Assembly (NCBI RefSeq): GCF_011386835.1 | Contig: NC_088791.1 | Location: 88,536,001-88,600,000 of the forward strand | Direction of reading: 5' to 3' | Source of the DNA: Chrysemys picta bellii | Lineage: Eukaryota | DNA: 64,000 bases | Shown: one piece after another, positions 1,335 through 54,590 of the stretch | Numbering within the stretch: the stretch's first letter is position 1 | How the letters are laid out: every line of letters starts with the position of its first letter | The notes under the pieces: model-generated | Database searches by the model: none | Told to the model about the DNA's origin: nothing | The model's input: the letters and a program-made list of their open reading frames with translations, nothing else | Program-made: the position numbers and the translations under genes

Positions 1335-1571
1335 GGCCTGGTCTGCACGAAAAAGTTAGGTTTACCCAGCTGCGTGACTTGGGGGAGTGAAAATCCACCG
1401 CCCAGTGTAGACAGTGCTAGGCCGATGGAAGAATTCTTCCGTAGACCTGGCGCCTAGGGACACGAGGTGGATTAACTACGCTGGCAGGAGAACGCCTCCT
1501 ATCGGCGCAGGCCGTGACTACACCGCCACGGTGCAGCGACGTGCTGTAGCCTTTCAGGTGTGCACAAGCCC
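1335..1571. mobile_element. Harbinger-type MITE (CpG-rich copy)
   Basis: TTA then GGCCTGGTCTGCAC...GTGCACAAGCCC, degenerate versions of the TIRs of the 27708-31512 element. Confidence 0.65.
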
Positions 1572-1674
1572 TGCCATAGCTGCCCCTCGGGCCTGGATGG
1601 ATCAAACCAAAAACACCTTCCCCTGGGGCGAAGGGCCCAAGAACCAGTGGCTCAGCTAAGCCCGGGAACGCCGG

Positions 1675-2166
1675 TGTTGGCCAAATAGGGCCCGTTTCCC
1701 CCCGGAGCTTACCTAATTACACCAAGGAGGCACGGAGAGACAAGAAGACGGGTACCAGGTCCTTTATTTGTCAGTCAGCTGAGAGGGTGCTCCCATCGGC
1801 TCATGCCAGAGGGGAGAGACACCTTACAGGGCCAAGCAGGCCCTTTTTTATAACCAGTAACAAACAACTTAGCCTTGATTCTTTTGCGTCATTACACTGA
1901 CCTATAGATAATAGGTTACACAGAATACATATATTATTTTGGGGAAGGGGATACAAGAAACATCTGTTGCGGATACATTTATCATATTGAAGGGAGAACA
2001 AGGTACATCCCTTGACCCTTTGCACTAAATACCTTGGGGAGATATGGAGAAGCAGCTGCATATACTTGTGAGCCAAATGAGCCAATTAGCAAATAGCTGA
2101 CATGGTTAAATGCATGGTTAGATACACGTCCTTAATTTTATTTAGATCTCTAGGCCTTTTCCATCA
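1675..2166 (-). repeat. ERV 3' LTR
   Basis: Direct repeat of 9813-10304. Minus-strand AATAAA at 1763-1768, with a TATAAAA box upstream of it on the minus strand. Preceded on the minus strand by the PPT. Confidence 0.97.
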
Positions 2167-2168
2167 GA

Positions 2169-2179
2169 TCTCCCCCCTT
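2169..2179 (-). promoter_or_regulatory. ERV polypurine tract
   Basis: Minus strand reads AAGGGGGGAGA-TC-TGATGG into the 3' LTR start. Confidence 0.9.
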
Positions 2180-2197
2180 AAAAGCATTTTAAGAGTC

Positions 2198-3841
2198 TTA
2201 TAGCCCTTGTTCCTCAGTTTCTACTGGTTTGTACAATATCATCATTTGTTGATATGTAACCTGACTAGCCAATCTTCGGACTACCGCAACCAAGCAAGGG
2301 GTAAAGCAAGCGAGAGTTAATAGGGTGGTTACAAAGAATATAAAAAGGAGAAAACCTTTTCGTAGCCATCCCAATTGTGGCAGCCAGGAGGTAAACCAAT
2401 CTGTGTCCCACCCACCCCAGGTCTGTACTGGGACATGGGCTATCTTTCTCATTTCCTTTGTTAACTGTTTTACTGCCTGACCATTATCTATTTGTAAGCA
2501 GCAGTTAGACTCATTTAGTTTTGCACAGAGTCCTCCTTCCTCTGCTAGCAAGTAGTCAAGAACTATGTGGTGTTGAAGAATTGCATGTCTCATTTGAGTT
2601 GATTGATCGGCCAAAAGGTCCAGTACCGCGGCTGTTTGGTTGGTTAATATTTCCAAGATAGCCTGCAGCCTAATGATTCGGTTGAGATTATAGATTGGTT
2701 CCCTGGCTCCTGTTACTAGCTCACTAGGGTTCCAGGTGGCCGGTCCATAATGTTTGATGATCCTTTCAGGGGGCCATTCCTGAGCTCCCCAAGTTTGGGA
2801 ACTCCCGGCAGTCAAAGTGGAGTCCACAAACCATTTTTCTCTAATTAAATCATCATAAACTTTAATTCCCAACCTATTTCCTTGGTTTTGAGGTAGTAAA
2901 AAGAATAGAGGCCTAATATATCCTACATAACATATTCCTGACCAGTTTGGAGGCAATCTGCGATAAGCATAGGATCCACAGATCCAATAATGACCTTTCA
3001 AGGCCCAGATTCCATTAGCAAAGGGGCCATCCCAGGTCTCGGGGTTGTCTGCAGGGCCCGGCTCCTCATAATACAAAGCGTTACCTGATTCTATGGGCCC
3101 CCCGAGAAAATTATCTACGTCCGGATTACAGTAATCACATTTCCATGCCCCAGCCCTCGCCTTCCAGACACAGTTGCAACCAAATCTTGGGCTATTGGTA
3201 CTAGACCAAAATTGTTTAAAATGTGTCACTCGGGTTCCATTAGGGTGCTGCCATGCCCACTGATACCATCGTACCACGTGGTCCTTACTAGTGGTGTTAT
3301 CTCGCTGGCAACTTAAAAAGAGGGCATCAAAGTACCCATCCAATCCTACTGCCTTACAACCATCACCCGTATGATTCCAGTAGGAACATCTTACCCAGCT
3401 ATTATTAGTCAGCTTTACATGGGTATGGTTCCAGCGTCCCTGATACTTAAAACAGTCATACGGGCGACAGTAGGGATCCCAGCAATCAAATCCGAGAGAT
3501 AAAGTCCAGTTGCACGTACTTTCTCCCACATACTTTCCTTCGCGCTTTGTTCGATTAAGGCAAAAGACACCCATTCCAGTAAAATAGAGCCGCCAAGGGT
3601 CACTATCCTCAGTCCACCGTCCCATTCCATTATGCACTATGCTTAAGTTGCTTAGCCACCATTTGGGCTGCACTGGCTGGGCTACCCAGGGCCACTCATT
3701 TAATTCTCCTGGACCGCCACATACCCAACAATTGGTAAGGTTAAAGGAATCTGCTATTATTTCCCCTAATTGCAAAAACCTATTTTTCCAACCATATGAA
3801 TCACTGAATATACATAACAGAATTACAAGGGATAGCTTCAT
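2198..3841 (-). CDS. env: Retroviral envelope glycoprotein (547 aa, open; furin site appears mutated)
   Basis: Hydrophobic signal peptide, CWVC (CxxC) motif, ERV3-like WPPERII..YGPATW and NRIIRLQA motifs, ISD-like LQHHIVLDYLLAEEGG, C-x7-CC and a C-terminal TM helix. Confidence 0.95.
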   Translation of the reverse strand: MKLSLVILLCIFSDSYGWKNRFLQLGEIIADSFNLTNCWVCGGPGELNEWPWVAQPVQPKWWLSNLSIVHNGMGRWTEDSDPWRLYFTGMGVFCLNRTKREGKYVGESTCNWTLSLGFDCWDPYCRPYDCFKYQGRWNHTHVKLTNNSWVRCSYWNHTGDGCKAVGLDGYFDALFLSCQRDNTTSKDHVVRWYQWAWQHPNGTRVTHFKQFWSSTNSPRFGCNCVWKARAGAWKCDYCNPDVDNFLGGPIESGNALYYEEPGPADNPETWDGPFANGIWALKGHYWICGSYAYRRLPPNWSGICYVGYIRPLFFLLPQNQGNRLGIKVYDDLIREKWFVDSTLTAGSSQTWGAQEWPPERIIKHYGPATWNPSELVTGAREPIYNLNRIIRLQAILEILTNQTAAVLDLLADQSTQMRHAILQHHIVLDYLLAEEGGLCAKLNESNCCLQIDNGQAVKQLTKEMRKIAHVPVQTWGGWDTDWFTSWLPQLGWLRKGFLLFIFFVTTLLTLACFTPCLVAVVRRLASQVTYQQMMILYKPVETEEQGL

Positions 3842-6800
3842 TGTCCCTTTCTTCTAAACAGTCCCTTTAGTCCCTCTAGTCCTTGGTACTCCCAGATGGA
3901 GTCTTCACCTGTGCCATCCCGGGCTTCCAGAGCCGGAGTGGACAGAGGGCTGTTGTCCTCTTCGGTTGTGTTGCTCTCCGGGTTTGGATTCAGAAACCGC
4001 TTTACTCGTGTATGATGTGTCCACTTGTCGCTCCCGAGGACCTTAACGGCGGCCTGGCTGATGAGCGATACAGTGTGCGGACCGTCCCACCGTGGCGTGA
4101 GGGGATCGCGCTTCCACTTTTTGATAAGGACTTGATCACCAATCTGGAAGGAATGCACGGGTTGATCCAAGGGAAGGGTCTGGAAAGACGCCGCGTATCG
4201 ATGTAGCTGTAACAAAACAGATTGTAGCGCAGAAACCTGTTTCCACAAGGTGTCATTCCCTACTTCCCAGTTCACATCCTCTCGGTACCCCGGGATGAGT
4301 ACTCGGGGAGGGAACCCAAAGACCAGTTCAAAGGGTGAAAGTTTCAGACCCTTACACGGGGCCCTCCGAATGCGGGTAAGGGCGAGTGGCAGAGCATCAG
4401 GCCATTTTAAACCGGACTCCATACACAGTTTAGTGAGAGTATCTTTGAGAGTTCTATTCATTCTCTCCACTTGGCCCGAGCTCTGCGGTCTCCAAGGTGT
4501 ATGCAATTTCCATTGGATACCGAGGGCCCGCAACACCTGCTGAACCACCTGAGAGATAAAATGGCTTCCCCGGTCCGACTCAATTACTTCAGGGAGATGG
4601 AAGCGGGGAAGTATTTCATGTAACAGGGCTTTAGTGACTGCCCGTGCTTGACAATGCCGTGTAGGGTAACACTCTACCCACCCAGTAAGTTGGTCAATAA
4701 AAACAAGCAAATACTTATAGCCCCTACAAGGGGGGACTTCAGCAAAGTCCACCTGCCACCTTTGAAAAGGATAGGCAGCCCAGGGCCGGCCTCCCATTGG
4801 GGCGGGGGGGCCGCACCCCTTTTGGTTTGTTTGTTGGCAAATAGAACAGTTATTAACAATTCTTTGGGCTTCCATATGCATACCCAATCCCCTAAGGGAC
4901 CGGGTAGCCAAATCGACCATAGCTCCTGATCCCAAATGTCCCTCCTTATGTAAGGATTGGAGAATTTCCTGGAGTACTGGTCTAGGTACAAAAATCTCCC
5001 CCCCTGGCAACTTCCACCACCCAGAGGGAATTTGTTGGGCCCCTGTGGCTTGCGCGTGAGACACTTCCTCTGTTGTATAGTGGGGAGCAGGGGTTTTGAC
5101 TCCTGTATTTTGGGCCCAGAGAAGCCATGTGGCTCCTCCTTGTGCGGCTTCTTTCGCGGCCTGATCAGCCAATCGATTGTATTTACGCTGTTCGGTTTCA
5201 GGGGCCCTCCCATGTGCACGCACGTGTATCACGGCGACCCGGAGGGGGAGCATCAGGGCCTCAAGTAATGACTTAATAAGGGTCCCATGGGCTATTCTTT
5301 GGCCTGAAGCCGTAATGAAGCCCCTTTCTTTCCACATGGTTCCGTGGGCATGCACCACCATATACGCGTAACGACTGTCGGTATATAAATTAATAGTTTT
5401 CCCAGTTCCCAACCGGAGAGCCTCAATAAGAGCCACCAGCTCCGCCCCCTGGGCAGATAAATTGGGGCTAAGCTTAAACTTGTACACCTCTCCACTTTTA
5501 ACTATGACGGCTGCTCCTGTAAATCGCTTCCCATCTTCTACATAACTAGATCCATCAACATATCCTTCGATATCGGGATTGGGCCAGGGCAAATCTGAGA
5601 GATCAGGGCGAGGTTTAGTCTCTTGTTGCAAGACTTCAATACAATCATGAGTGGGGCGGGCCCTACAGGGAACCTGGGGATCAGGCAGCAAGGTAGCCGG
5701 GTTGAGGGAACTAACTGTCTTGAAAGTCAGGTTAGGGGCCAACAAAAGCCCTACCTCATATCTAGTATGCCGACTAGGATTTAGATGCTTTTCCCCGGCT
5801 CCTGTTCCCAGTATCTGGGGTATCCCATGGGGCACCACAACCTCAGTGTCCCCACCCAGGGTTAATTTTTCAGCCTCCTGTACAAGGAGAGCGGTCGCAG
5901 CCACGGCTCGTAAACAAGCCGGCCAGCCTTTGGCAACCGGGTCCAATACCTTTGAGTAATAACCTATGGGTCGCCAGGTCGGTCCCGACCTTTGGCACAG
6001 GACTCCAGATGCCACCCCTCCCCTCTCGTGAACGTATAGGGTGAACGGCTTCCGGGAATCCGGGAGAGCTAAAGCGGGAGGCTGAACTAAAGCCTTTTTA
6101 AGCTCTTGAAATGCTTTTTCTTTTTCCTTGGTCCATGTCCAGTGGAGCAGACCCTCTTTAGTAAGGGACTCGTATAGTGGTCTGGCCTTCCCTCCGTAGT
6201 CAGGGATCCAAAGCCAGCAAAAACCGGTTAGTCCCAGGAAAGCCCTCAACTCTCTGGGGTTTCGGGGTCGAGGGCTCTCGAGTATAACTTGGATCCTATC
6301 TTTACCCAAGCTACGACGTCCCTGACAAAGATGATACCCGAGAAAAGTGACCTGCTGTTTAACCAATTGGGCTTTTTCCCTGGAAACCTTGTACCCCTGA
6401 GCTCCAAGAAAATTAAGGAGTTCTATAGTCTGCTCTTTACAAGCTGTCTCCCTCTCAGCACTTAAGAGCAGATCATCACAATACTGAACTATGTTGCACG
6501 AGGGGTGTCTAGCCAGGAACGGGGCAAGATCTCTTTTTAGCTGGCTGCCGAAGATCTCGGGTGCACAGGTAAGTCCCTGAGGGACAACAGTCCAGAGATA
6601 CTGAGCCTTGTAATGAGTATCTGGGTCCTCCCATTCAAAGGCAAACAATTTCTGAGACTCCTGATCAAGGGGTATAGAGAAGAAAGCATCTTTTAAATCT
6701 ATTACAGAGAACCAGCTGTGGCTCTTGGGGACTTGGCCCAAGATAGTATGAGGGTTTGGGACAACTGGATAAGGGGCCTCTATTAACTTATTAACCTGTC

Positions 6801-7527
6801 TTAGGTCCTGGACCAATCGATACTGCCCATTAGGCTTAGGCACTCCCATTATCGGAGTATTGTACGGGGAAGTGCCTTCCCTTAGCCAGCTGTACTGTAA
6901 AAACTTTTGAATTAGAGGCTTCAATCCGATCCGAGTGGTTAATTTAAGGGGGTATTGTCGAATTCGGACTGGGCGGCTTCCTTCCTTAAGGGAAATATGC
7001 ACTGGTGGAGCGTTTCGAGCCCGAGCAAAGCCTCCCTCCTCAGCCCAGACTTTAGAGTTAACCCCCGGCAGCTGGTCCCTCTCACTCTCCGGCTGCGCCG
7101 TGGGAGGATTTTCAGCACTCAGAAGGGCCATTTGATAATTAGAAGTTTGTTGTTTAGGAAGCCTAACTTCCATAGTCCCATTATTATTGAACGAGATTTC
7201 TGCCTGTAATTTAGTAAGCACATCTCGTCCTAGCAGCGCAATGGGACAGGAAGGGCTACAAACGAATTGGTGGGAAATATGATGGTCCCCTACTCTCACT
7301 AAGAGGGGAAGAGTTTTTTCCAATTTTATGTTTTGTCCCTCTATCCCTTGAACTATAGCACACCCTTGAGCCCTTGCTTGAGGAGCCTCTGCGAGGGGAA
7401 GCAAACTAAGGGTAGCCCCTGTATCAATAAGGGCTTCAATTGGGCGGCCCCCTACCTTAATTGTTACCATGGGATCCAGGCTGGCGGGCTGTGCCGCCAG
7501 AAGGGGCCGCTGGGTCCCCCGGCCTCC
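3838..7527 (-). CDS. pol: Retroviral Pro-Pol (protease, RT, RNase H, integrase), expressed by readthrough of the gag amber stop
   Basis: Stop-free frame of more than 1210 aa: DTGA protease, LVQDLR and YCDD RT, DGSS/ELVAL/TDSRY RNase H, HHCC plus D-D-35-E integrase. Same frame as gag, following TAG at 7528-7530. Confidence 0.97.
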   Translation of the reverse strand, partial: GGRGTQRPLLAAQPASLDPMVTIKVGGRPIEALIDTGATLSLLPLAEAPQARAQGCAIVQGIEGQNIKLEKTLPLLVRVGDHHISHQFVCSPSCPIALLGRDVLTKLQAEISFNNNGTMEVRLPKQQTSNYQMALLSAENPPTAQPESERDQLPGVNSKVWAEEGGFARARNAPPVHISLKEGSRPVRIRQYPLKLTTRIGLKPLIQKFLQYSWLREGTSPYNTPIMGVPKPNGQYRLVQDLRQVNKLIEAPYPVVPNPHTILGQVPKSHSWFSVIDLKDAFFSIPLDQESQKLFAFEWEDPDTHYKAQYLWTVVPQGLTCAPEIFGSQLKRDLAPFLARHPSCNIVQYCDDLLLSAERETACKEQTIELLNFLGAQGYKVSREKAQLVKQQVTFLGYHLCQGRRSLGKDRIQVILESPRPRNPRELRAFLGLTGFCWLWIPDYGGKARPLYESLTKEGLLHWTWTKEKEKAFQELKKALVQPPALALPDSRKPFTLYVHERGGVASGVLCQRSGPTWRPIGYYSKVLDPVAKGWPACLRAVAATALLVQEAEKLTLGGDTEVVVPHGIPQILGTGAGEKHLNPSRHTRYEVGLLLAPNLTFKTVSSLNPATLLPDPQVPCRARPTHDCIEVLQQETKPRPDLSDLPWPNPDIEGYVDGSSYVEDGKRFTGAAVIVKSGEVYKFKLSPNLSAQGAELVALIEALRLGTGKTINLYTDSRYAYMVVHAHGTMWKERGFITASGQRIAHGTLIKSLLEALMLPLRVAVIHVRAHGRAPETEQRKYNRLADQAAKEAAQGGATWLLWAQNTGVKTPAPHYTTEEVSHAQATGAQQIPSGWWKLPGGEIFVPRPVLQEILQSLHKEGHLGSGAMVDLATRSLRGLGMHMEAQRIVNNCSICQQTNQKGCGPPAPMGGRPWAAYPFQRWQVDFAEVPPCRGYKYLLVFIDQLTGWVECYPTRHCQARAVTKALLHEILPRFHLPEVIESDRGSHFISQVVQQVLRALGIQWKLHTPWRPQSSGQVERMNRTLKDTLTKLCMESGLKWPDALPLALTRIRRAPCKGLKLSPFELVFGFPPRVLIPGYREDVNWEVGNDTLWKQVSALQSVLLQLHRYAASFQTLPLDQPVHSFQIGDQVLIKKWKRDPLTPRWDGPHTVSLISQAAVKVLGSDKWTHHTRVKRFLNPNPESNTTEEDNSPLSTPALEARDGTGEDSIWEYQGLEGLKGLFRRKGQ

Positions 7528-7530
7528 CTA
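7443..7530 (-). promoter_or_regulatory. Gag-pol stop-codon readthrough signal (UAG, 8-nt spacer, predicted pseudoknot)
   Basis: TAG GGAGGCCG followed by complementary blocks GGGACCCAG/CTGGATCCC and GCGGCCCC/GGGGCCGC. The layout resembles the MLV readthrough element. Confidence 0.75.
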
Positions 7531-9169
7531 TACAAACGACTCTTCCGCGCCGTTGTAGAAGATGGGCGCGGGTGGGACTTTGTTTCTATATCCTTCCCCC
7601 ATGGTGTGTCGCTGGGGGCATTCGTTCTTCCAGTGGCCCTCCTCTTTACAGATAGCACATTGATTTAGTCCCAAACGGCGGCCCTTTCCCTTCCCCTGTG
7701 GTCCTGTTTGCCCCTTGCCCCCCTTTTTCTCACTTCCCTCCCTCAGGGCCATCGCTAACATGCGGGCCCCCTTTTTCTGTTCCTCATTGTCTCTGCGATC
7801 ATAGACCTTTAATGCAATCTCTAAGAGCTCCTCTATATTTTTACCCGATGCCCCGTCCAATTTCTGCAACTTTTTCCTAATATCCTCATAGGACTGCCCA
7901 ATAAAGAGGGGAATTAACACCCGCTTCCCATTGGCATCCTCCGGATTGAGGTCTGTGTATCTTTTACAGGTGTTACACAGGCGCTCATAAAAGGCGGCTG
8001 GATTCTCATTCCTTTCCTGTCGAATATTATACAACTTGGCCCAATTTGGAGTCTTTCTAATACAGCGTTTCATCCCCTGTACTATAGCTACAGCATATCT
8101 GCGATGGAGGTCTCGACCCTCCTCAGTATTATGGGCCCAATTGGGCACGGTCTCAGGGAGCTGGTTGGCTAAATCAGCTGCGCTCGCTCCCCCTCCTGCT
8201 AGCCCCTCACGGGCTTTTGAGATGACCAAGCGCCTCTCCTCCGCAGTCAGTAGGGTATTTAGAGCAATTCTCATATCGCCCCAAGTAGGATTATGGGCCG
8301 AGACCAAAGTTTCAAAGACTGCTGTTAGTGGAGCGGGGTCCTCTGTAAACGGGGGGTTCTGGTGCTTCCAGTTATATAGGTCACTTGTAGTAAAGGGGAC
8401 ATATATCATAGTGAGCGCACCTCCGGGGGCTACAGTTTCCCTTAGGGGCAGTTGGTGCACCGGGGCTACCTTTGCCGTTACAGGGCTCTTAATAAAAGTG
8501 AACCGTGTGTCCCCAGGGTTGTACTTATCTGTTAATTTCCATTCCCCCTCAGCCGTCCCGGAGCCAGTTTTGCTCCTAGTGCGGTCAGACACCGCGGAGC
8601 CTGTGGAGCTCGTAGAGGGCTCTGGAGCAGAGGAGTCCTGATCACTGAGATCCTCTCTAATACTTTCTCCTGATCTTTTCGTCGGGGTATCACTTTCAGG
8701 GGAAGGAGACTGTTCTGGCAAGACCGGAGGGCCAGGATACACTGGAGGAGGGGGCATAGGATCAGGGGCAGAAGGAATCACAACTGGTGGACAGAGTTTC
8801 TTAACAGGGGGACGACCAGGGTGCCTAACAGGGGCACGGGCCATTAAGGCCCCAATGGCCTGTGCTTTACATTTTCGCAGCCGGGGGGGTGGGATTGGCT
8901 GCAAGATCCTGCCAAATATCTATATAGGGAAACTGGTCCCAATGTCCATCCCCAGTTACAATGCCATGCACAGCTTGCACAGTTTTTAATTTAAGTGTTC
9001 CCCCAATGGGCCATTCCACCCCAAATGTCGTCCATTCCACAGTACAGAATTTTATCAGATCATCTTTACATAATACCATTACATAATCAGCCTGGCGTCT
9101 AAACGCCTTCCAATTATTTAACATACATTCCAAGGGTGTCCCAGCGTATGTGCTTTGTCCGGACCCCAT
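7528..9169 (-). pseudogene. gag: Retroviral gag with a single frameshift in a C7 run at about 8883-8889
   Basis: MGSGQS myristoylation start (ATG 9169), matrix (EW..FGV.WP..GT), proline-rich region, capsid (VPFTTSDLYNWK, MHR-like QERNENPAAFYERL) and one CCHC knuckle. Split between ORFs 8867-9184 and 7528-8904. Confidence 0.93.
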
Positions 9170-9580
9170 TATGCTTGTATTCAATTAAACCTGGTCACGG
9201 GTTCGACCGACCCCCCTTGCGATCAAGATATCCTAGTCACGGGGTTTCCCCTCGCAGGAGTCTCGGTGCGGCTAGAGTCGGTTTAAGTCCTAGACCTGGT
9301 TATCACAATTTTGGCTTCCAACATATCATTAATATGAAAAAGAACAATATCCCTGCCAAGAATAAAAGCAGGCCCTGGGACTTTTCTACGTCCCAATAAT
9401 TGTCCAGTACAGCCCACGGACTAGTGAAGTTAGTGAAATTATTCATTAGCCGCTGCCTGGTTCAGTTACCATGACCACAAAAGATTTATCCACCTACAAT
9501 ACCTTCCCACACAGGGGTTACCTAAAGGGTCCAACCTACACTGCGGGGGGCGTTATCCCTCAAACCCAAGAGGTAAACGC

Positions 9581-9589
9581 ACTTACCGC
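9581..9589 (-). promoter_or_regulatory. Probable ERV major splice donor in the leader
   Basis: Minus-strand GCG|GTAAGT between PBS and gag start. Confidence 0.6.
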
Positions 9590-9791
9590 CCGGAGTGGCC
9601 GCGTCCGGCTGTTGGACCTTCCCCTCTTCTGGTACCGTCTTATCTCCGTGTCGTTAGGAGTTCTCTTTAGAGAGGACACAGCCGCCCCGACCGATTGTGA
9701 CGACCCGAGGCCCGAGCAAACCAACAGCTCGAGGTGGCCACTCCTCGGAATCGCCTTCGGTCATCGGTCAGTGCCCTCCACAGGGAGAGAA

Positions 9792-9809
9792 GTCCCGGCG
9801 GAGTCGCCA
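9792..9809 (-). promoter_or_regulatory. Primer-binding site complementary to tRNA-Arg(UCU)
   Basis: TGGCGACTCCGCCGGGAC, 3 nt after the 5' LTR. Matches the recalled 3' end ...GTCCCGGCGGAGTCGCCA of vertebrate tRNA-Arg-TCT. Confidence 0.85.
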
Positions 9810-9812
9810 ATT

Positions 9813-10304
9813 TGTTGGCCAAATAGGGCCCGTTTCCCCCCGGAGCTTACCTAATTACACCAAGGAGGCACGGAGAGACAAGAAGACGGGTACCAGGTCC
9901 TTTATTTGTCAGTCAGCTGAGAGGGTGCTCCCATTGGCTCATGCCAGAGGAGAGACACATCTTACAGGGCCAAGCAGGCCCTTTTTTATAACCAGTAACA
10001 AACAACTTAGCCTTGATTCTTTTGCGTCATTACACTGACCTATAGATAATAGGTTACACAGAATACATATATTATTTTGGGGAAGGGGATACAAGAAACA
10101 TCTGTTGCGGATACATTTATCATATTGAAGAGAGAACAAGGTACATCCCTTGACCCTTTGCACTAAATACCTTGGGGAGATATGGAGAAGCAGCTGCATA
10201 TACTTGTGAGCCAAATGAGCCAATTAGCAAATAGCTGACATGGTTAAATGCATGGTTAGATACACATCCTTAATTTTATTTAGATCTCTAGGCCTTTTCC
10301 ATCA
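9813..10304 (-). repeat. ERV 5' LTR
   Basis: Direct repeat of 1675-2166. Minus-strand TATAAAA at 9984-9990 and AATAAA at 9901-9906. Confidence 0.97.
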
Positions 10305-11450
10305 CCGGCTGGGAAAACGGGGGCGGTGCAGGGAAAAGGCTCCCAGCAGGGCTCCAGGGGCACCGAGCACAGCCCGGGGGCAGAAGCCGCGCGAGAGCCG
10401 AGGCTGGGAGCCGGGCGGGTGACGTCATGAGGGGCGGGGCAGGTGGCTGAGGGTGAGGGGAGCTTAGAGAGGGTGACGTAGCTTGGTGACCCCGGGAGCG
10501 GGAGGGGCCATGGGCAGTCCCGCCCCCAGCCCGTCGGACCCTCTCGGCCCGCGCAGCATCGCGGCGTCGACAGAGCCGGGACACGCCCCCTCTCCGCTGT
10601 TACCGCCCCGCCCGCTGCAGCGTCACGTGGCCTCCTCTCGGGTGACTGGGCTAATGGTCGGCAGAGCCCGCTTCCCTCCCGCCGCCGCACCATAGAGCCC
10701 GAGGAGGTCTGTTTCAGACCGGCCCGAGGCGGGCGACGCTCTGGCTGCCAATTTCCGGCACCTCTAAGGCTCTCGGGCCCAACTGGAGGTTCCGGGGCGG
10801 AAGTGGCGCGCGCGTCCCGCCCGCGACCATTGAAGATGGCGGCGAGGCCGAGGAGGCGAGGAGCCGAGGGGACAGCGTAGAAACCGCCGCTCCGCAGCGA
10901 GACAGAGGAGCTCGGCTCCCGCCCTTCAGAGGGGTGAGAGGAGCAGAGCAGGCTGGGAGACAGACCGACCGCTCGCTGTGCTCCTGCGCGTCTCCTCCCC
11001 CCTCCCCGGTAGGGGGAGTGGAGCAGCCCAGGGACCTGCAGGGCCCCCGGGGGTGGGGGGTATCACGGAACTGCAGGAGAGGGAGGGGGGTTCTCCCCCC
11101 TGCCAGGCCACTTCTCCCCCCGCCTGCCGGCGCGCCCAGGCCGGCGGCTCTGCGGGGAAGGAGCCGCGATGCCGGGGAAGTTCTCAGGGGGCGGGGTAAC
11201 GGGGGGCAGGTATCGGTATCAGGCCGGTTGTGGTCAGCAGAGCAAGGGCTTGTTCCCAACCGTATCTGTGTCTCGGGCTCACTGTTGCCTCGGACCTCGT
11301 GTCCTGCAGGCCTGGAGTCTGTACAGGGAGGGGGCTTGTACCTAACTGTCCTGCACAGAGACAAGGTGAAGTTAAGGCTGCGAACACGTTAATGACCCGA
11401 GGGTCTGGTGTCCTCAGGGTGTTCGGAGCGGGATGGTGCGGGAGGTGACC
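10305..11450. promoter_or_regulatory. CpG-island promoter of WBP11
   Basis: Very GC/CpG-rich. Full CRE TGACGTCA 10420-10427, ETS CGGAAGT 10798-10804, YY1 AAGATGGCGGC 10833-10843 and GC boxes. Confidence 0.85.
10830..10933 (+). other. WBP11: Putative non-coding exon 1 of WBP11 (start approximate)
   Basis: Within the CpG island, ending at donor GG|GTGAGA (10934). The next exon has acceptor TTTTCAG| at 13600 and 51 nt of UTR before the ATG. Confidence 0.5.
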
Positions 11451-13651
11451 TCAGTATTACATACCCGAAAAATGCAGAGTTTGGGACCCTTATGTGAGAG
11501 GTATAAATCTGTTAACTCCCCACCCCATAGTATTCCTGGCTAGAGAAATAATGATCTGAGAAATCAAACTTGTGTTGCCTTAACTATCCATAAGAGATGG
11601 CTTATTTTATCAGTGAACTCAAAAGCTAGACTGCTTTTGTTGTACGCATGGCTGTTATGATGCTTTATAACCAGACAGTACAGATAAAAGCATTTTACAA
11701 ATGCTGAATTAAACCGTATATTGAATACAATCATTTCTAGCTCTTCAGTAAGGGCCCAGTCTACTCACATACTGAGGGCACCTAATGCCATCTTAGTGCA
11801 ATGCTCAGTATCTTAAAGGTAATCATGTGATTATAATGCTCATTATGTGGCAGAAGATTAAAAGTTTAATTACACATAAACTAGCCTGTCTTCATATCCA
11901 AACTTTCTAACTCCAGATAATGAAATTAGAGCACTTGCATAAAAAGAGGAAAGGTTAGTGTGGTGACAGATCTTCACAGTTTATACTAGAGACACAATTT
12001 ATGAAGAAAAATTCTAAATCCAGATGTTCAACAATGCACATTTTTGAGACTCTTCACATAAAGGAGGGCAGATGATAAACTGGTATCCCTGTGATAGAGA
12101 GGTGATTGGTATGGGATGTATGGAAACAGTGTACAGAGAGGTATACATTGTAGGCTGCAGCAGGACCACAGATCTTGTGCAGCCTTAAATTCAACTGGAT
12201 GTCATGTTTCCATTTGGATGGTGGTTTAATGGAACACACTAACTTTTGAACACTGCATTGGATTAATTCTAAAATTTCAAAGAATGTTCTAGATATCAGT
12301 GGGCAGAAGAACACTATTGATTTTGAGGAAGTTGAGAAGGGGAAAGTGGGGGACATGCAGAGCTCCTGCCATTGATTTAGTAGAGCTGCCCACATCTTCA
12401 AGTACCTCTGTAGTTGTTTACAGATTAAATAACTCGTTGATGAAGCCAACACCTTGCAACATAGCAATACTGTCTCTTCTCTGTCCATCCTCCCAATAGT
12501 GTGATGTTCACATCCTGAATGGTTTATCTCCCAGACAGAAAGAAGAGAAGTAATAAAGGGGGGAGAGTAGGGGGACACAGAGCCATGGCATGTATGCTAG
12601 TGGAGAAGTGTGGAAAGCAGGGGGAACCCTGTTATGAGGGAAGGGGGAATGTGGGACAACCCCTGGCATGGGAGTGAAATGGGAGATCACACTGAACCCC
12701 AGGTGAGGGGGAGAATGGAGGACCCTGCAGTGGGAGGATTGGATGGCACTCAGAAATCCTGTCATGAGGTTGAGAGTGTTTCAGGGAGTCCCAGAAAGAG
12801 AGAGGGATGAGATGATGGCATACAGGGAGTTGTTGCAGGGGGAGAGGGAGGAATGCAAGGAGCTCTGCCCTACAAGTCAGCTCAGGCCTAATGCCTGAAC
12901 CAGACCTAAACCCAGCTGACCAACCCTAGAGGATTGAGTCATTTTCCAACCCAACCCTGACATTTGTCCCCAAACCTGAATCAGCGCTGCTGTTCTCCTC
13001 CTGCCCCTGCTGTTGGAATTGCAGCAGCTGTGGGCCATGCTCCTGCTGTCCAGCAACTCCTGCTGCGCTGTGTGAACTGTAGAGTGAGAGGTACTTGAAC
13101 TCTTCAGCATGATCACTCTGCAGCTCACGCAGCGCAGCAAGATGGTGGTGGCCACCAGGAGCAGAGCATGCAGCCGTTGCGGTGCTGACCCCATCGCCAA
13201 GCCGACATGAGCCCAAGAGGGTCTGGTTGTTTTCACACCCGACCCGGGCCCGACACTTGTAGTTGGGCTTAGGTTGAGTAGCAGGGCTCTACTCTAATTT
13301 CAGAAGCAACAAAGTGTGCAAAACCCTAGTAAATACAAACATGATACTTTTCATTTGATTATTGAAATGAATGAGATGCAATAGTCATTTGCTGACGAAA
13401 TGGTGTGGTTGTGCGGCTTTGTATGTTTGCCTGAGTCTGCAGTGGCATTCTGCACATTCTTGAGAGCTGGGATTTAGGGAGGTGACAGACATTTGAGTTT
13501 CTGGGAAAACAAGCACTAATGTGGGGGGCGGGGGAAAGAGGAGGAACTGGAGTATTCTGACTACTACATACAGCATGTGACGTGGCTTTTTCTTTTTCAG
13601 GTGTCTTTTTTTCCCCCATTTTATTGAAGCAGTAAAAAAAAATTGGTCAAA

Positions 13652-13715
13652 ATGGGGCGGAGATCAACATCCTCCACCAAGAGTGGGAAGTTCATGAACC
13701 CTACAGACCAGGCCC
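13652..13715 (+). CDS. WBP11: WBP11 coding exon 1
   Basis: MGRRSTSSTKSGKFMNPTDQA; donor GTAAG. Confidence 0.95.
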
Positions 13716-16700
13716 GTAAGTAGTCACTAAATTTCTTGTTGTAAGAATGGTTAATTCATCTGAGATAAAAATGGGAATGAAAGCTGGTTGGGAGTCAGGT
13801 GAGATTCCACAAGCATTGTGTAGTTAGAGGAGGAAACAAGACTACACACATCTATTCCTCCTGCATTAGTGTAACTGCTAAGATTCTGATGGTCAAATAA
13901 GCATCTAGAAACAAGCACAAAGATCAACTCTCACTATCAAATAATTCAGATGGTCATGATTAGCAATGTTTTAAGTTTGTCCAAAATGTAGATTTTAAAA
14001 AAAAGTTTTTTCTATTCTAAGCATAGAATATTTCAGTTTCTAGGGTGTTAATCATTTAATTAGCATTAAATTCATATAGTCTTGTTTCAAAAAGACTCCT
14101 TACTCCAGAACTTGTTACATCAATTAGGTGGGTGTATATAGAAATATCTCTGCTTTTGGAGGAGTGGGGTTGCTAGTATGGCCATCTATCGCCTTCCTTC
14201 TTCTATAATGGGTATGAAATATGATTGTTTCTAATAAAATATCTGAGACTGTGAAAGTGGGGGTGGATAAAATTTGGCTTTTAAATCACAAGCTGTTAAG
14301 AAACAGAACTTCAGTAGTCACAAGGGAAGAGTTACGACTATATTTGCTTCTTTTTCAATTAGTCATTTCTCTCTTCTGCAGGAAAGGAGGCCCGGAAGAG
14401 GGAGCTGAAGAAGGTAAGACACTATTACCATCCCTAAGAACACCTGGCCAGCACCTTTCTAATATGCATCACATTCCCAACTGTTATGGGCTTGAGACAA
14501 TAGGTAGAATCCAGCCTTTCTGGTTGGCTTCTCAGGAGTCACTTTCTTTCTGTGGAAAATGTTGTCTGACCAAGTAATTTAAAGGAATGTTGTCAACTTA
14601 AGTCACATTTGTCTGAATTTTATTAACCTACAACTTCTACTTGTAATACCTAAAATAGAAGAAAAAAAAAAAAGAGATTTTTTTTCTCTGTTTACTTTGT
14701 TCATTTTATAGCACTTTGTGTTCCCCTGTTGTTTGTGTGGGTCTTTTCCAAAGCAACTGGGGCGGGAGAAACATTTTTAAATGTGAGGCGGAAAAAGACT
14801 AATATTACAACAATTGGCAGTTCAGGGACACAGTGTATATGGAATACCTGAAAGTACTTTAACTCAGTGGTTCTCAACCAGGGGTATACATACCCCTGGG
14901 GGTACACAGAGGTCTTCTGGGGGTACAGCAACTCATCTAGATATTTGCTTAGTTTTACAACAGGCTACAGAAAAAGTACTAGCAAAGTCAGTACAAACTA
15001 AAATTTCATAACAGACAATGACTTGTTTATATTGCTCTGTATACTATACATTGAAACGTAATTACAGTATTTATATTCCAATTGATTTATAATTATATGG
15101 TAAAAATGGGAAAGTAAGCAATTTTTCAGTAATAGTGTGCTGTGATACTTGTATTTTTATGTCTGATTTTCTAAGCAAGTAGTTTTAAGTGAGGTGAAAC
15201 TTGGGGGTACGCAAGACAAATCAGAAAGGGATACAGTAGTCTGGAAAGGTTCAGAGCCACTGCTTAACTCACTTTTAAAATGGACCTTACAGGGTGGTGT
15301 TGAGTGATTAACATTCGTAAAGCACTTTGAAAAGAATGGATGAATTTATTTCTCTTTCCTGAGGGAGTTCTTTGAGCACATTTAGAAGTCCCGGAAAGCT
15401 GAATTACAAAGAGAAATGTGATGTCATAGATTATATCTGTTCCCCTATTTATCCTAGAACAACAGCACTGTTCCTGATTTTTTTATTCTCTGACCTTCTC
15501 AGAACAAGAAGCAGCGGATGATGGTCCGAGCAGCTGTACTTAAGATGAAAGATCCCAAACAGATCATTCGGGACATGGAAAAATTGGATGAGATGGGTGA
15601 GTGGGTACCATCTGGAGGGACTTGCATTTAGGGTGAGAGGGGAGATGGAAGGATCAGATAAGATGGGAGGTGAGAATTGAGAGATGGGACAAGATGGGTT
15701 TAGGGGTTAATGGAGTGACTATGTGGGTTGTACTGTGGAAACTTTGCCAAGTACTGGGTTTTGCTTGTTAGAAGGATTGGAGAAGAAAAGGGGGTAAATG
15801 GTTCGTGGAATGGGAATAGATGGTGAACTTTTTCAAGGTAATTGGATATTGGAGAATTTTGGATGACTAGACGTTCCTATGGAAGACAAAAGGATAGGAG
15901 TGGTGCATATTGTCTCTAATGGCTGTGTAAAAGGAGACAACCCCCTTAAGGGTCTGAATCAGCTTTCCATCAGGTCTCCAGATAGTCATGTCATTGTCTC
16001 TGGAGGTTGCTATATTGAACATGTGTGCAGTATATGCAATTGGGTAATCATGGCTTCTGTTGCAAGTCTCCCCTATAATTTTCTTTTTGGAATTGTTTGT
16101 TGCCTTGGTCCTACTCTCCCGGATCAGAGTTTAACCCAGTACAGCAGCCACAACTTAATGAGAAGGTGCTGAAGGACAAGCGCAAGAAGCTGCGTGAGAC
16201 CTTTGAGCGAATTCTGCGGCTGTACGAGAAGGAGAATCCTGACATCTACAAAGAACTGCGCAAGCTGGAAGTGGAGTATGAGCAGAAGAGATCGCAGCTC
16301 AGCCAATACTTCGATGCTGTCAAGGTAACATTGTTCCAGACTTGGTCCTCAGTCCCTGCCACATTGAGTATTTTCACCAAGCTGTGCACCGTGCACGTTG
16401 GCCACCTCCTCAGTCATAGTACTTTAGCAGGGACAACATGATGAACCATCAGTATGTCCTCAGTGTTTCTGTGATGTACTATATTTTATTTCTTGGAAGG
16501 TTACAGGGAAGGATGGTTTTGGAATGGTTTTACAATGGAAGCCCTAACTATCTTGCATACCCTGGCTTGTGAGATACGTCTTTTGTAACGGGAATTAAGC
16601 TAATTTTGTTTTAAAACCCTCCTAAGTGTGTACGCATGTAATGAGTGTGTCTCAGCATTTATTTACAAGTGTTTCTGTTGTTCTGCTGTAGTATCTGAGT

Positions 16701-19700
16701 CCCTAAGCTCTGTCCCACTCAACTATAAATCCTTCCTATAATGGGTGCTTCCCAGATACTCTGAAGGACATGGTGTTCTTGCCTGCAGTATATCTTTGTT
16801 TGGGAACTAAGGGCATGTCTACACTAAAAACTTAAGTCGACCTCTATTAAGGTCGTAATTACTGTGGTGGTTCATGTCCACTGTCCCCTCCTTCAGTCAG
16901 TGGTGTGCGTCTTCACCAGGAGCGCTTCCACCAACCTAAGGCAGAGCTGGGCTTTGAGCTCCACTTGTGGCTCCCCACCAGGTGCCTGGCTGCCCCACAG
17001 GCTCCCCTCCCTGCCTCTACGTTCCCTGCTGGGAGCCTGGCTACCCCTGGCTCTCAGCCATCAGCTCCCCGCTGGAAGCGGGGTGGCTGCCTGGGCTCCG
17101 AGCGGGGAGTCAGGACCCCGGGAGCAGCCTGGCAGGGAGCCTGGGTAGCAGCTCAGCTGGGATGGGGGAGCCTGGACCCTGGCAGCAGCCCAACTCCAAG
17201 CGGGGAGCCCCCTCCTGGGCTGGGAGCAGGGATGACTATTTTGTCAATTTCATGGCTCCAGCATGGCGCCAGAAATTGACAAGAATGACAGCCAACAGCT
17301 GATGTAAATAAGACAGTATCTAGGAGGACACTGCTTGCCCTAACTGCTCCTGTATAAGCCTTATGCTTCTCGTGGCGGTGGAGTTGTCTGTGTAGTAGGG
17401 CACTTACATCGGAGGGAGCAAGATGGTAGTGTGTACACTGACATAGGTCGACATAAGCTGCCTTATGTTGACCTAACTGTTGTGTAGACCGGGGCTAAGT
17501 ATCTTAAGAGGAATATAAGCCTGATCAGGTTTTGATTATTTGAATGGGGAAATGTTTTCAGCTAGCTGAGCTCTGTGTGTTACCGTTGACCAAAGAGGCC
17601 TTAATTATTTTATGCTCGTGATCTGTTTCTCCAAATGTTCATTCAGGGGTCTAACACAGAGAGTGACATACCAGTTGGACAGGCAACCTTCTGAATAACC
17701 ATTTTTATGAGGGAAAGAACTGACTCGCTACCCTCTGTATTCTATAAAGTGAGGAGTGTGCACATGATCCTCTTCCCTTTGCCTCCTAAGAGATTAACCT
17801 GCTTGCTTTTTGTATTTCTTGCAGAATGCACAACATGTTGAAGTGGAGAGTATACCCCTGCCAGACATGCCTCATGCCCCCTCCAACATCCTTATACAGG
17901 ACATCCCCCTACCGGGGGCTCAACCACCTTCTATCCTCAAGAAAACATCAGCCTATGGGTAAGAGGGAAGTGTCATGGAGGGGTAATAAATGCTGAACAC
18001 CCATGTGTTGCAGGTGGGTGTAAGAGGTTGTTGATAGAAGTGATGTTTGGGAGAGGGGAATTGGAAGTCCTGACGGAGTGATGAATCCTAAGTTCTATAT
18101 GTATTTCCCCTCTGTTTTTGCAGTTAAAATCCTTCTTTGTGCCTTGGTCATCTCTCATACTGACTCTGATAAGTGTCTCTGGTCTTCCTGCATATCTTGT
18201 TTTGCACATTAGTCCACCTTAAGCTCCATTGCTAGAGTTCTTCTCCCACTGTTCTCACTGTGATATTTTTTGCCTTAAATACTTTCATAGGCTTCTTGTC
18301 TGCTGCTGTGTTAAATTCAAGCTTCTATTTCACGGTTGTCTACCGTTGCTTTCACGGAGGGATGGGGGAGGCTGTACCCAGAACCACCAGCGACAATGTT
18401 TTTTGCCCCATCAGGCATTGGGATCTCAACCCAGAATTCCAATGGGCGGGGGAGATTGCGGGAGCTATGGGATAGCTAGCCAGAGTGCAACACTCAGGAA
18501 GTCGAAGCTAGCCTGGATACATGGATGCACACCGCCGAATTAATATGCTTAGTGTGGCCGCATGCACTTGACTTTATACAATCTGTTGCCAAAAATTGAA
18601 TTCTGTAAATTCGGAATAATCCCGTAGTGTAGACATACCCTTAGGGTACGTCTATACCCAGCCGCTAGTTCGGCGGCTGGCAATCGAACTTCTGGGTTCA
18701 ACTTACCGCGTCTTGTCTGGACACGATAAGTCGAACCCGGAAGTGCTCGCCGTCGACTGCGGTACTCCAGCTCGGCGAGAGGAGTACCGCTGAGTCGACG
18801 GGGGAGCCTGCCTGCCGCGTGTGGACCGAGGTAAGTTCGAACTAAGGTACTTCGAACTTCAGCTACGTTATTCACGTAGCTGAAGTTGCGTACCTTAGTT
18901 CGATTTGGGGGTTTAGTGTAGACCAAGCCTAAATCTGGCCTCTCTCTCACATCCTCCTGCTCTCCCTTTCCTCTTACTGATTACTTAGCATCCTTTTATT
19001 TCTGTCAGCTTCATGGTGTCTTCATTTTGCTCCCTATGTTTGCACCAGTTCCCATGTGTCCTTACTCTTCTCCTTCTGTCTTCCTTTAAGCCTGTTTCTT
19101 CCATAAAGCTTTATCTCTAATATCCATCAGCAGTGTCTCCAAACCCTCCCACGTTTAATTGATGACCTCTTTTTTTGAGTCAGTTCATAAATTCGTTGGG
19201 CAAGGATAATGCCTTACTCTGTTTTTGTACATTTCTAATGTATTTTCATAACATTTAGTACAGGGACAGCTGGATCATTGTCTAAATGGTTGCTGTGAAG
19301 GTGATTGTGAGGAATTGGGACAGATTTTCGTGTGTATCCCCTTTATGATTTTTTTGTTAATTTCCAGCCCTCCAGTCCGGCCCATTTCTGTACTTCCACC
19401 TCCTGGACTTGGTGTTCCACGGTTACCCCCAGGTCGGAAGCCCCCTGGGCCTCCTCCAGGGCCTCCTCCACCTCAAGTCCTACAGATGTATGGCCGTAAA
19501 GTAGGCTTCACTTTAGAGATGGCCCCTTGGAGGCGAGAGGAAGAGATTTCTTACAGTCCTGACATAGGTAATAAGTTGTTCCTCCTTTGTCCCAGACCTC
19601 ATGTTATCCTTGTACTGGAGATTTACCTTGACTTCTGTCTGCTCTTCCACTGATTGTGCTACAGTGAATGAGGTGTGCACTGGCATTGCCATTATGACTT

Positions 19701-25700: not shown

Positions 25701-25830
25701 AAAGGACAGTCCCTGCAGCTGTCCACTCCTGAAGCAGGGACTATTTACACCCCACTGGTCAATGCTGCTGATAGTTCTGAAATTCTCATACACATGATGG
25801 GAGGTTGTTCCTTGTGTTCTAGCACTGGAG

Positions 25831-25877
<47 letters not shown>

Positions 25878-26547
25878 GGAATTCAAGGGAGGGGAATACA
25901 CTGGGGCCTTAACCTCCATACAAGGCCAATATCTAGAATTTCCTAAATGTGTGTGCACGTTCTTCCTGATGGAGAACAATCTGATGCTGAGGGGCCTGAA
26001 AACAATTTGTAAGATTACCTACTGCCCTACTCTAACTCGGGGGCCCTGCCTCCAATTTACGAGCTTTCTCTGGATTGTTTCCAAGTGCTGTTTCCACTTG
26101 CTCAAACTTTCTGTCCCCCTGTCCACAGGTATCCCTCCTCCTCGTCCGGGCATGTTGCGTCCACCTCTGGGACCTCCACCAGGCCTTTTCCCGCCGGCTC
26201 CCATTCCAAACCCAGGGGTGCTGAGTGCCCCACCCAGTCTGATCCAGCGCCCCAAAGCGGATGACACCAGTGGAGCTACCATTGAGAAGAAAGCCACAGC
26301 CACAATCAGTGCCAAGCCGCAAATTACCAACCCCAAAGCAGAGATCACCCGCTTTGTACCCACTGCCCTGCGAGTGCGACGTGAGAATAAGGGGGCTTCT
26401 GCTGTCTCCCAGAGAAAACATGATGATGAACCAGCTCTCCAATTAACCAAAGCAACTCCTAAGGTTGGCTCCTCTGCCCCTGTCTCTGTGCAGACTAAGG
26501 ATGATGTGTATGAAGCCTTCATGAAGGAAATGGAGGGGCTACTGTGA
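13652..26547 (+). CDS. WBP11: WW domain-binding protein 11 (splicing factor), spliced CDS 1926 nt = 641 aa
   Basis: Coding exons 13652-13715, 14382-14413, 15503-15596, 16128-16324, 17825-17958, 19368-19567, 21027-21218, 21914-22015, 22772-23080, 25082-25264, 26129-26547. All introns GT-AG with consistent phases. Starts MGRRSTSSTKSGKFMNPTDQARKEARKRELKK, contains SVRFADMPG (PP1-binding), ends KDDVYEAFMKEMEGLL. Confidence 0.97.
14382..14413 (+). CDS. WBP11: WBP11 coding exon 2
   Basis: KEARKRELKK; AG/GT flanks. Confidence 0.93.
14865..15262. mobile_element. hAT-type MITE
   Basis: CAGTGGTTCTCAACC...GGTTCAGAGCCACTG termini; degenerate TSD CTTTAACT/CTTAACTC. Confidence 0.7.
15503..15596 (+). CDS. 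WBP11: WBP11 coding exon 3
   Basis: NKKQRMMVRAAVLKMKDPKQIIRDMEKLDEM; AG/GT flanks. Confidence 0.95.
16128..16324 (+). CDS. WBP11: WBP11 coding exon 4
   Basis: EFNPVQQPQLNEKVLKDKRKKLRETFERI...YFDAVK. Confidence 0.95.
16811..17495. mobile_element. Harbinger-type MITE
   Basis: TAA|GGGCATGTCTACAC...GTGTAGACCGGGGC|TAA. Confidence 0.8.
17825..17958 (+). CDS. WBP11: WBP11 coding exon 5
   Basis: NAQHVEVESIPLPDMPHAPSNILIQDIPLPGAQPPSILKKTSAYG. Confidence 0.95.
18255..18640. mobile_element. Non-autonomous Harbinger right-end fragment
   Basis: Aligns by eye with about 31190-31512 of the full element. Ends GTAGTGTAGACATACCC|TTA. Left boundary approximate. Confidence 0.8.
18644..18929. mobile_element. 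Young palindromic Harbinger-type MITE
   Basis: TTA|GGGTACGTCTATAC...GTGTAGACCAAGCC|TAA; CpG-rich; internal hairpin 18837-18903. Confidence 0.85.
19368..19567 (+). CDS. WBP11: WBP11 coding exon 6
   Basis: PPVRPISV...GRKPPGPPPGPPPPQVLQMYGRKVGF. Confidence 0.93.
21027..21218 (+). CDS. WBP11: WBP11 coding exon 7 (acidic)
   Basis: QRGHDDDASSTSEDEGYPEDMDQD...EDKKS. Confidence 0.93.
21914..22015 (+). CDS. WBP11: WBP11 coding exon 8
   Basis: LSVRFADMPGKSRKKKKNMKELTPLQAMMLRMA. Confidence 0.95.
22772..23080 (+). CDS. WBP11: WBP11 coding exon 9
   Basis: QEIPEEGREVEEYSEEEEE...PPGPPTGLPPGPPP. Confidence 0.95.
25082..25264 (+). CDS. WBP11: WBP11 coding exon 10 (proline-rich)
   Basis: APPFLRPPGLPGLRGPLPRLLPPGPPPGRPP...APP. 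Confidence 0.95.
25831..25874. repeat. (AT)5(GT)17 microsatellite
   Basis: Read directly in the last WBP11 intron. Confidence 0.95.
26129..26547 (+). CDS. WBP11: WBP11 last coding exon
   Basis: IPPPRPGMLRPP...AKPQITNPKAEITRFVPTALRVRR...EMEGLL*. Confidence 0.96.
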
Positions 26548-29469: not shown

Positions 29470-29647
29470 TGTGGCTGCAATAAACAATGTAGCCTTGCCC
29501 TTCTCTCCTCCCCCACCCCACCTGGGTTACCTTGTCCATTATCTAATTTTTTTTTTAATTATTAAAGAATGCATGGTTTCAAAACAATAGCTACTTTATT
29601 TCGAAGGGGGGAGGGTGGTTGGCTTACAGGAGAAACACACACAACTG

Positions 29648-47543: not shown

Positions 47544-47559
47544 GTTCTGAGTTAGTTCT

Positions 47560-54152: not shown

Positions 54153-54590
<438 letters not shown>

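Follow-up and report, generated by a model that had tools for sequence, protein, structure and literature searches.

The genome of Chrysemys picta bellii contains a complete class I endogenous retrovirus (ERV) in the promoter of WBP11. The provirus lies on the minus strand at positions 1675-10304 of the analysed 64,000-nucleotide stretch of contig NC_088791.1, hereafter the window, and is 8630 bp long. Taking the results together, we consider it probable that this turtle provirus is old, shared by related turtle taxa and incapable of autonomous replication, and that both full-length and spliced env transcripts are made from it. It is of note mainly for its position in the WBP11 promoter, for its likely expression and for a splice donor inside its long terminal repeat (LTR).

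The two LTRs start with TG, end with CA and differ by six substitutions without gaps, which corresponds to a divergence of 1.22%. The gag gene is interrupted by a single frameshift in the overlap of the matrix (MA) and capsid-nucleocapsid (CA-NC) frames at 8867-8919, within a C-rich tract. The CA-NC frame is closed by a TAG codon at 7528-7530 and pol continues in the same frame, which suggests a junction of the read-through type. Pol retains the catalytic motifs of protease, reverse transcriptase (RT), RNase H and integrase, and its integrase ends in a C-terminal domain of the murine leukaemia virus (MLV) type (MLVIN_C). Env is composed of a signal peptide, a region matching the TLV_coat domain and a transmembrane stretch. 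Its CWVC (CXXC) motif at residues 38-41 and CX7CC motif at residues 439-448 are kept in all relatives that cover them. The role of the polypurine tract next to the 3' LTR is established retroviral anatomy, and the primer-binding site (PBS) appears to resemble the 3' end of tRNA-Arg(UCU). A first-pass annotation of the window had described LTRs of 492 bp with about six differences, a perfect target-site duplication, stop-free pol and env, and one frameshift in gag; alignment, open reading frames (ORFs) and domain matches confirm this anatomy (Table 1).

The same annotation had called the insertion recent. For turtles, the accessible part of PMC4263362, citing Green et al., gives neutral rates of 8.43e-10 and 4.77e-10 substitutions per site and year; they derive from Pelodiscus and Chelonia, species other than the host. 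At these rates the LTR divergence (95% range 0.45-2.65%) translates into 7.3 or 12.9 million years (95% range 2.7-28 million years), which replaces a recent date by one of about 7-13 million years. No turtle-specific yearly rate was found in the portion of PMC9995274 at hand. Four of the six LTR differences are located within 26 nucleotides (P = 0.006), at 1797-1822 and 9935-9960, where the R region is inferred to begin. When these four are taken as one event, the estimate becomes 3.6-6.4 million years (range 0.7-19 million years). Five of the LTR differences are transitions, all with A or T in the 5' LTR. We conclude that the insertion is likely some 5-13 million years old, as dated from its sequence.

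Four public sequencing runs out of 24 listed were aligned to positions 2167-12000, a range that covers only the junction of the 5' LTR. They comprise DNA of organism A (X1), organism B (X2) and organism C (X10), and a run of organism B taken by guess to be RNA (X15). The depth of contigs is summed and provides no copy number. A contig of organism A spans 10275-10749, from 30 nucleotides inside the LTR into the flank, and has no differences from the window. The organism A flank has one difference in 1695 nucleotides, and organism A is possibly the source of the window itself. In organism C, a contig with the depth of the flank (19.1) extends as far as 10276 and so includes 29 nucleotides of the LTR, of which an empty allele would mismatch 26. 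The organism C flank differs from the window at 17 of 1725 positions (0.99%), in agreement with the LTR clock. The junction is thus seen in two of the three DNA runs and the empty site in none among the rows listed, the third run being without junction cover; no loose end of an empty-site type is present among the 24 listed of 235. The insertion had earlier been called possibly polymorphic. The occurrence of the junction in organisms A and C, whose flanks are 1% apart, and the lack of an empty allele among the listed rows speak against this. Because the junction is present in organisms A and C and the flank divergence matches the LTR clock, an age of millions of years and inheritance by several related turtle taxa are likely; fixation lies beyond these data. 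Contigs from the body of the provirus differ from the window at 24 of 3586 nucleotides in organism A, 34 of 4486 in organism B and 90 of 4425 in organism C. Close sibling proviruses of the window copy exist.

The X15 run has the profile of RNA, with a depth of 158 in a WBP11 exon contig and of 0.8-4.2 in intron bins, vs flat DNA runs. Among ten runs guessed to be RNA, six contain 0.40-0.49 of the words and four contain at most 0.03; X15 alone was used. A joint between 4206 and 9851, with GT-AG ends on the minus strand, is present in X15 and in none of the three DNA runs. One of its ends coincides with a consensus donor within the LTR, the other with an acceptor that is rich in pyrimidines and lies upstream of env. 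Contigs of X15 also cover gag, pol and the unspliced acceptor region. Over the six provirus contigs listed for X15, 32 of 6819 nucleotides are unlike the window (0.47%, 95% range 0.32-0.66%), and the flank of organism B differs at 8 of 1544 (0.52%). At 3167, 3203, 3619, 5308, 5776, 7469, 7864 and 8785, eight of the 40 variant rows displayed, X15 keeps the letter of the window and each of the three DNA runs includes contigs with a different letter. The X15 contig over 8713-9124 also preserves the MA/CA frame offset of the window, judging from its length. Because of the flank-like divergence, the eight rows with window letters and the shared frame offset, we infer that the spliced env RNA likely comes from the orthologous copy. 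The DNA and RNA originate from different individuals, and contigs provide neither the strand nor the level of transcription. Since the X15 contig keeps the frame offset, the gag frameshift appears to be real and older than the split of organisms A and B. A contig of organism C over the gag break was considered as an orthologue and rejected; it is 4.4% divergent and was taken to derive from a sibling. X15 has no cover at 10367-10507, a gap that was not counted against read-through from the host promoter.

The splice donor at 9850-9851 is positioned inside the LTR, upstream of the PBS, and RNA spliced from it would contain none of the leader. In orthoretroviruses, most major splice donors are downstream of the PBS. 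The available text of PMC13736810 places the major donor there for the viruses that it covers. The LTR-internal donor, observed in one contig, may be a minor donor.

Other joints and depths in the runs concern relatives of the provirus. The summed depth of X15 is 78,000-231,000 over the leader and LTR (9055-10366) vs 60-340 over gag, pol and env, and a loose end lies at 9053. The pattern points to a relative with an internal deletion and a very high level of transcription that shares only the LTR, leader and gag start and would be VL30-like. A joint skipping about 195 nucleotides of env (3036-3233) is found in all three DNA runs, and one skipping 75 nucleotides at the end of gag (7531-7607) in two of three. 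A joint that skips 125 nucleotides of the RT region (6654-6780) occurs in the RNA run only and has non-canonical ends. These three joints point to deleted sibling copies.

Several residues of the window copy depart from those of its relatives. Pol residue 438 is unlike that of all 19 relatives having a residue there (22 aligned), Pol 1058 is unlike 7 of 7, and Env 337 is unlike 15 of 16 (17 aligned), with the same residue in one Gopherus copy. Further departures are located at Pol 694 (20 of 20 relatives differ) and Pol 731 (19 of 19). The odd residues had been read in the first pass as CpG transitions; they do depart from the relatives, and the CpG type is assigned by script for Pol 1058 and by inspection for the other two. 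CpG-type changes constitute 5 of the 18 private Pol differences, vs a site share of 6.9% (P = 0.006). The high CpG content of the provirus was considered as a sign of protection from methylation, which was rejected as the private changes are CpG-enriched. Env 337 (2831-2833) sits at the boundary of the surface and transmembrane subunits (SU/TM), in a motif outside the furin consensus given in the accessible part of PMC9967133, and env has a one-codon gap relative to relatives near 2488. The YCDD motif of RT was examined as a lesion and rejected, since all 19 relatives that cover it (of 22 aligned) have the same motif. The description of the provirus as nearly intact therefore holds for the open pol and env frames and fails for gag, which is broken, and for the SU/TM motif of Env. 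With these defects in gag and in the cleavage motif of Env, the provirus is likely unable to replicate alone.

The displayed variant rows separate two kinds of change. In five rows organism B DNA, organism C DNA and X15 are all unlike the window, and four of the five changes are nonsynonymous. In the eight rows with sibling letters in all three DNA runs, seven changes are synonymous. Since the split from organism B, the window env has accumulated two nonsynonymous changes and one synonymous change among the displayed rows, in addition to the one-codon gap. The mostly synonymous differences of siblings are as expected for a replicating lineage under purifying selection. The changes private to the window (mostly nonsynonymous, with the env gap and CpG enrichment in Pol) look neutral, as would be expected of a decaying copy, on few sites.

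The provirus and WBP11 are divergent, back to back, and the first exon of WBP11 extends to within about 200 bp of the U3 end of the LTR. The part of the CpG island to the right of the provirus contains CRE, ETS, YY1-like and GC-box motifs, and the observed/expected CpG ratio (CpG o/e) drops to 0.29 beyond it. Judged by its composition, the CpG-rich stretch to the left likely belongs to this island too, which the provirus thus splits in two. The X15 contig that covers the first exon (10508-10936) runs on outside this stretch. A Pfam Wbp11 match above the cut-off lies at 15494-15628. In mammals, C12orf60 is the head-to-head partner of WBP11; the left flank covered here is 1.67 kb long. The minus-strand orientation, the clustering of LTR differences and the WBP11 promoter site are absent from the first-pass annotation. 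According to the parts of PMC13490766 and PMC7039186 at hand, WBP11 is a splicing gene linked to developmental defects. The literature matches listed contain no link between a turtle ERV and WBP11; subscription journals, Repbase and Dfam lie outside that search and may name the family.

MLV tends to integrate in open promoter chromatin, and an integrase tail motif, WX7PLK(I/L)R, binds bromodomain and extra-terminal (BET) proteins, according to the available part of PMC4027182. The integrase tail in the window has a W followed by GLKGLF, with different spacing and no proline, in place of that motif. The GLKGLF stretch is kept in five of five close relatives. BET-type promoter targeting was considered as the cause of the site and rejected, as the tail lacks the motif and one site shows no preference.

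The classification of the provirus is based on RT, Gag and Env. In comparison with solved structures, its RT matches the p80 RT/RNase H of MLV and xenotropic MLV-related virus (XMRV) with 591-601 bits, foamy virus Pol with 148 and lentiviral RTs with less than 95. In a tree of 37 RT rows (midpoint root, one short row left out), the window belongs to a tight turtle clade (100/99) that is sister to a Pelodiscus element. Reticuloendotheliosis virus (REV) and mammalian gammaretroviruses form a separate clade (99/97) with the window outside it. Neither the tree nor the structure comparison contained an epsilonretrovirus reference. The provirus has a gammaretroviral-like RT, a p15 MA, a p30 CA, a single zinc knuckle and MLVIN_C, all class I features. 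Gag and pro-pol in one frame split by a stop codon are a further feature of class I ERVs. The CXXC motif in SU together with CXnCC in TM marks a gamma-type Env (PMC9967133, in the part accessible). The earlier label gamma-like is thus upheld by RT, Gag domains and Env, and by sequence the provirus is to be placed among class I (gamma-like) ERVs, in a clade found only in turtles and outside the genus Gammaretrovirus.

The closest relatives support a turtle host, as had been proposed, since every named Pol match with at least 84% identity comes from a turtle. The Pol identities are 95.9% for Emys, 84-92% for Chelydra, 91% for Gopherus, 77-88% for Mauremys, 85-88% for Terrapene and 84% for Chrysemys, followed by 61% for Pelodiscus and then near 50% for birds and crocodilians. 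Env shares 97.4% identity with a protein of Chrysemys and 88.8% with one of Gopherus, and nearly all named Env matches are annotated as ERV3-like or ENR1. The RTs of the turtle clade are 90-96% identical, and their branching ignores host families: Terrapene groups with Mauremys mutica (97/93), and the window groups with Emys, then Gopherus, then Chelydra. This suggests cross-family transmission or co-circulating lineages. Turtles have been called transmission hubs in the available portion of PMC6001957. A scan of the RT region against viral contigs returned one matching stretch and no loci, and an exact look-up of the window Env and histone H1 in a sequence collection found neither. Among the literature matches searched, the combination of YCDD, reverse transcriptase and retrovirus returned a bacterial system only.

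The provirus bears a close resemblance to Amar.ERVi.2 of Actinemys marmorata, described in PMC10435555 (Wang and Han 2023), of which a part was accessible. The two RTs match at 207 of the 212 alignment columns shown in its supplement, counted by eye, and Amar.ERVi.2 is the only row with YCDD in that supplement file. Their sizes are similar (8757 bp vs 8630 bp), and the provirus likewise has emydid-linked relatives (Emys Pol, 95.9%; Chrysemys Env, 97.4%). Invading ERVs (ERVi) are defined there by identical LTRs, undisrupted gag, pro, pol and env, and insertional polymorphism. By these criteria, the two LTRs of Amar.ERVi.2 are the same, its genes are undamaged and a second individual carries the empty allele; it is reported to be polymorphic in its species. 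The window copy, in contrast, has six LTR differences in 492 bp, a gag frameshift and no empty allele among the rows listed. In the accessible part of PMC10435555, neither the WBP11 locus, the YCDD motif nor the splice site is mentioned. The near-identity of the RTs supports the earlier proposal that the lineage may still be active, and the provirus likely belongs to a virus family already published as invading pond turtle genomes.

Like members of the genus Gammaretrovirus (MLV, XMRV and REV), the provirus has a p80-type RT as its best match (601 bits vs 148 for foamy Pol), MA p15, CA p30, one zinc knuckle, MLVIN_C, an in-frame gag-pol TAG and a 4-bp target duplication. Unlike them, it has an RT that is only 46-47% identical to that of REV, YCDD, an ERV3-type Env and an LTR-internal splice donor. 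With the ERV3 (HERV-R)-like group and the env of human endogenous retrovirus T (HERV-T) it shares CXXC and CXnCC, an open env, a non-consensus cleavage motif and, likely, spliced RNA. In contrast to both, the insertion in the window is far younger, pol is still open, relatives are active, and purifying selection or function is hypothetical.

We propose that the virus integrated into open chromatin of the WBP11 promoter. With the two units pointing away from each other, no viral splice or poly(A) signals would enter the transcripts of WBP11, which likely explains why the host tolerated and passed on the insertion. The 5' LTR, which keeps its TATA, would stay active beside the housekeeping island and produce full-length and spliced env RNA, and the open housekeeping promoter next to the U3 end may help to keep it active. 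The open pol and env frames would reflect slow turtle evolution and not selection. A tolerated, decaying, transcribed provirus is the most likely explanation. Several points weigh against it. Of 391 variant rows the comparison covers 40, of 20 indel rows 12 and of 235 loose ends 24, together with a small share of the contig pieces. The junction contigs carry 30 and 29 LTR letters, under the 31-letter bridging rule; we infer that contigs stop about 30 letters into the repeat as a result of word-graph assembly at a branch. Contigs drop rare alleles, which limits the detection of an empty allele, and the contigs listed for organism B DNA leave the junction uncovered, which makes the case for the insertion an indirect one in the taxon that gave the RNA. 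X15 was guessed to be RNA without a record. The short side of its splice contig has 28 letters, and the depth of this contig is 34.5, compared with 313 over env. LTR and RNA divergence overlap in their 95% ranges, and a very close sibling could supply the RNA. The contrast of synonymous and nonsynonymous changes has P = 0.07 on the 7 + 5 sites tested, and the clustered LTR differences may represent a single gene conversion event or tract.

The provirus could be old and shared yet silent, with the RNA of organism B coming from a very close sibling elsewhere. Close siblings are evident in the provirus contigs of all three DNA runs, the junction is uncovered in organism B DNA, and the CpG decay of Pol points to germline methylation of the provirus body. 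However, X15 keeps the window letter at the eight displayed rows where the DNA runs have sibling letters, and its divergence equals that of the organism B flank, and we therefore regard a sibling source as unlikely. Slightly more doubtful is an early co-option of env, in which an uncleaved, non-fusogenic Env would block active relatives by receptor interference, as described for HERV-T Env. In the accessible part of PMC9967133, HERV-T Env with a mutated furin site still blocks infection and is a likely restriction factor; against co-option, the same source reports that furin-site mutations reduce the superinfection resistance conferred by MLV Env 100-fold. The 547-residue env is open and encodes a signal peptide, the CXXC and CX7CC motifs and a transmembrane stretch, its spliced RNA is present in organism B (the locus being inferred), the insertion is shared, and an invading relative is published (PMC10435555, in part). 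Also against it, pol is equally open, so that an open env of such age needs no selection, and the few displayed changes in env since the split from organism B are mostly nonsynonymous, with the one-codon gap. We give equally little credence to a broader speculation that env is being domesticated in this promoter-lodged provirus with its LTR-internal donor, that its uncleaved Env protects against the invading YCDD family, and that the U3 enhancer is now part of the WBP11 promoter.

It is improbable that the provirus entered the germline recently and is still polymorphic within one species. Its few lesions, its high LTR identity, the lower age obtained when the clustered differences count as one event, the polymorphism of a close relative in Actinemys marmorata (PMC10435555, in part) and the fact that just two individuals are informative would all agree with such a view. 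On the other hand, junction contigs occur in two organism labels 1% apart, an empty-site loose end is absent among those listed, the orthologue is likely expressed in a third organism label, and even the low age estimate amounts to millions of years. Least probable of all is an assembly artefact, in which repeat collapse or homopolymer slip would account for the similarity of the LTRs, for the frameshift in gag or for the site. The frameshift does lie in a C-rich tract that is uncovered by any listed contig of organism A; against an artefact stand the perfect target duplication, the LTR-flank joins in contigs of organisms A and C, and the X15 contig that keeps the frame offset, as judged from length. 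The tolerated, decaying and transcribed provirus remains the explanation that we favour.

Table 1. Features of the provirus and of the WBP11 locus, in window coordinates.
Feature	Position	Strand	Basis
Target-site duplication CCGG, left copy	1671-1674		Sequence
3' LTR, 492 bp	1675-2166	-	LTR alignment
Polypurine tract, directly upstream of 3' LTR	2169-2179	-	Sequence
env ORF, 547 aa from ATG, ERV3-like gamma-type Env	2198-3841	-	ORF and domain search
pro-pol ORF, 1229 aa: protease, RT (YCDD), RNase H, integrase	3838-7527	-	ORF and domains
env splice acceptor: AG preceded by pyrimidine-rich tract, exon from 4206	4206-4208	-	RNA run X15
gag CA-NC frame: Gag_p30, one zinc knuckle	7528-8919	-	ORF and domains
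gag MA frame: Gag_MA p15	8867-9169	-	ORF and domains
PBS, 3 nt past 5' LTR	9792-9809	-	Sequence
5' LTR, 492 bp: TATA at 9990, poly(A) signal at 9906	9813-10304	-	Sequence
Splice donor AG/GTAAGC at 9851/9850, LTR position 455/492, inferred U5	5' LTR	-	Sequence and X15
Target-site duplication CCGG, right copy	10305-10308		Sequence
Host CpG-island promoter, GC 71%, CpG o/e 0.76	10305-11300	+	Composition
CpG-rich stretch left of insertion, CpG o/e 0.70 vs 0.11 further left	1350-1674		Composition
WBP11 first exon	At least 10508 to about 10933	+	X15 contig
WBP11 coding exons: start-codon exon at 13652, last exon to 26547	13652-26547	+	Sequence and Pfam

The remainder of the window contains a butyrophilin-like gene at 40848-47543 on the plus strand, with an Ig V-set exon and a PRY/SPRY exon, between WBP11 and a histone cluster. 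Histones H2A and H1 are identified by Pfam within 54153-60004 on the plus strand, and an H2B-like ORF by sequence at 59597-60004. Decayed ORFs at 28945-31281 and 47408-50477 have no Pfam match above the cut-off and presumably resemble a Harbinger-type transposon and a DIRS-type retrotransposon. Short inverted-repeat elements are located at 34332-34464, 45014-45173 and 57911-58103.

In a turtle, an LTR divergence of 1% corresponds to millions of years, and calling a provirus young requires turtle rates. Young-looking turtle ERVs are known, with invading ERVs described from five turtle species in the accessible part of PMC10435555; because its family is already among those data, the element is of lower novelty and ordinary when taken alone. 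With an 8.6-kb provirus situated some 200 bp from its first exon, WBP11 provides a natural case for testing the mutual effects of a housekeeping CpG island and an LTR. An old copy that is likely expressed beside an active family would offer a tractable setting for studying the start of env capture in a non-mammal.

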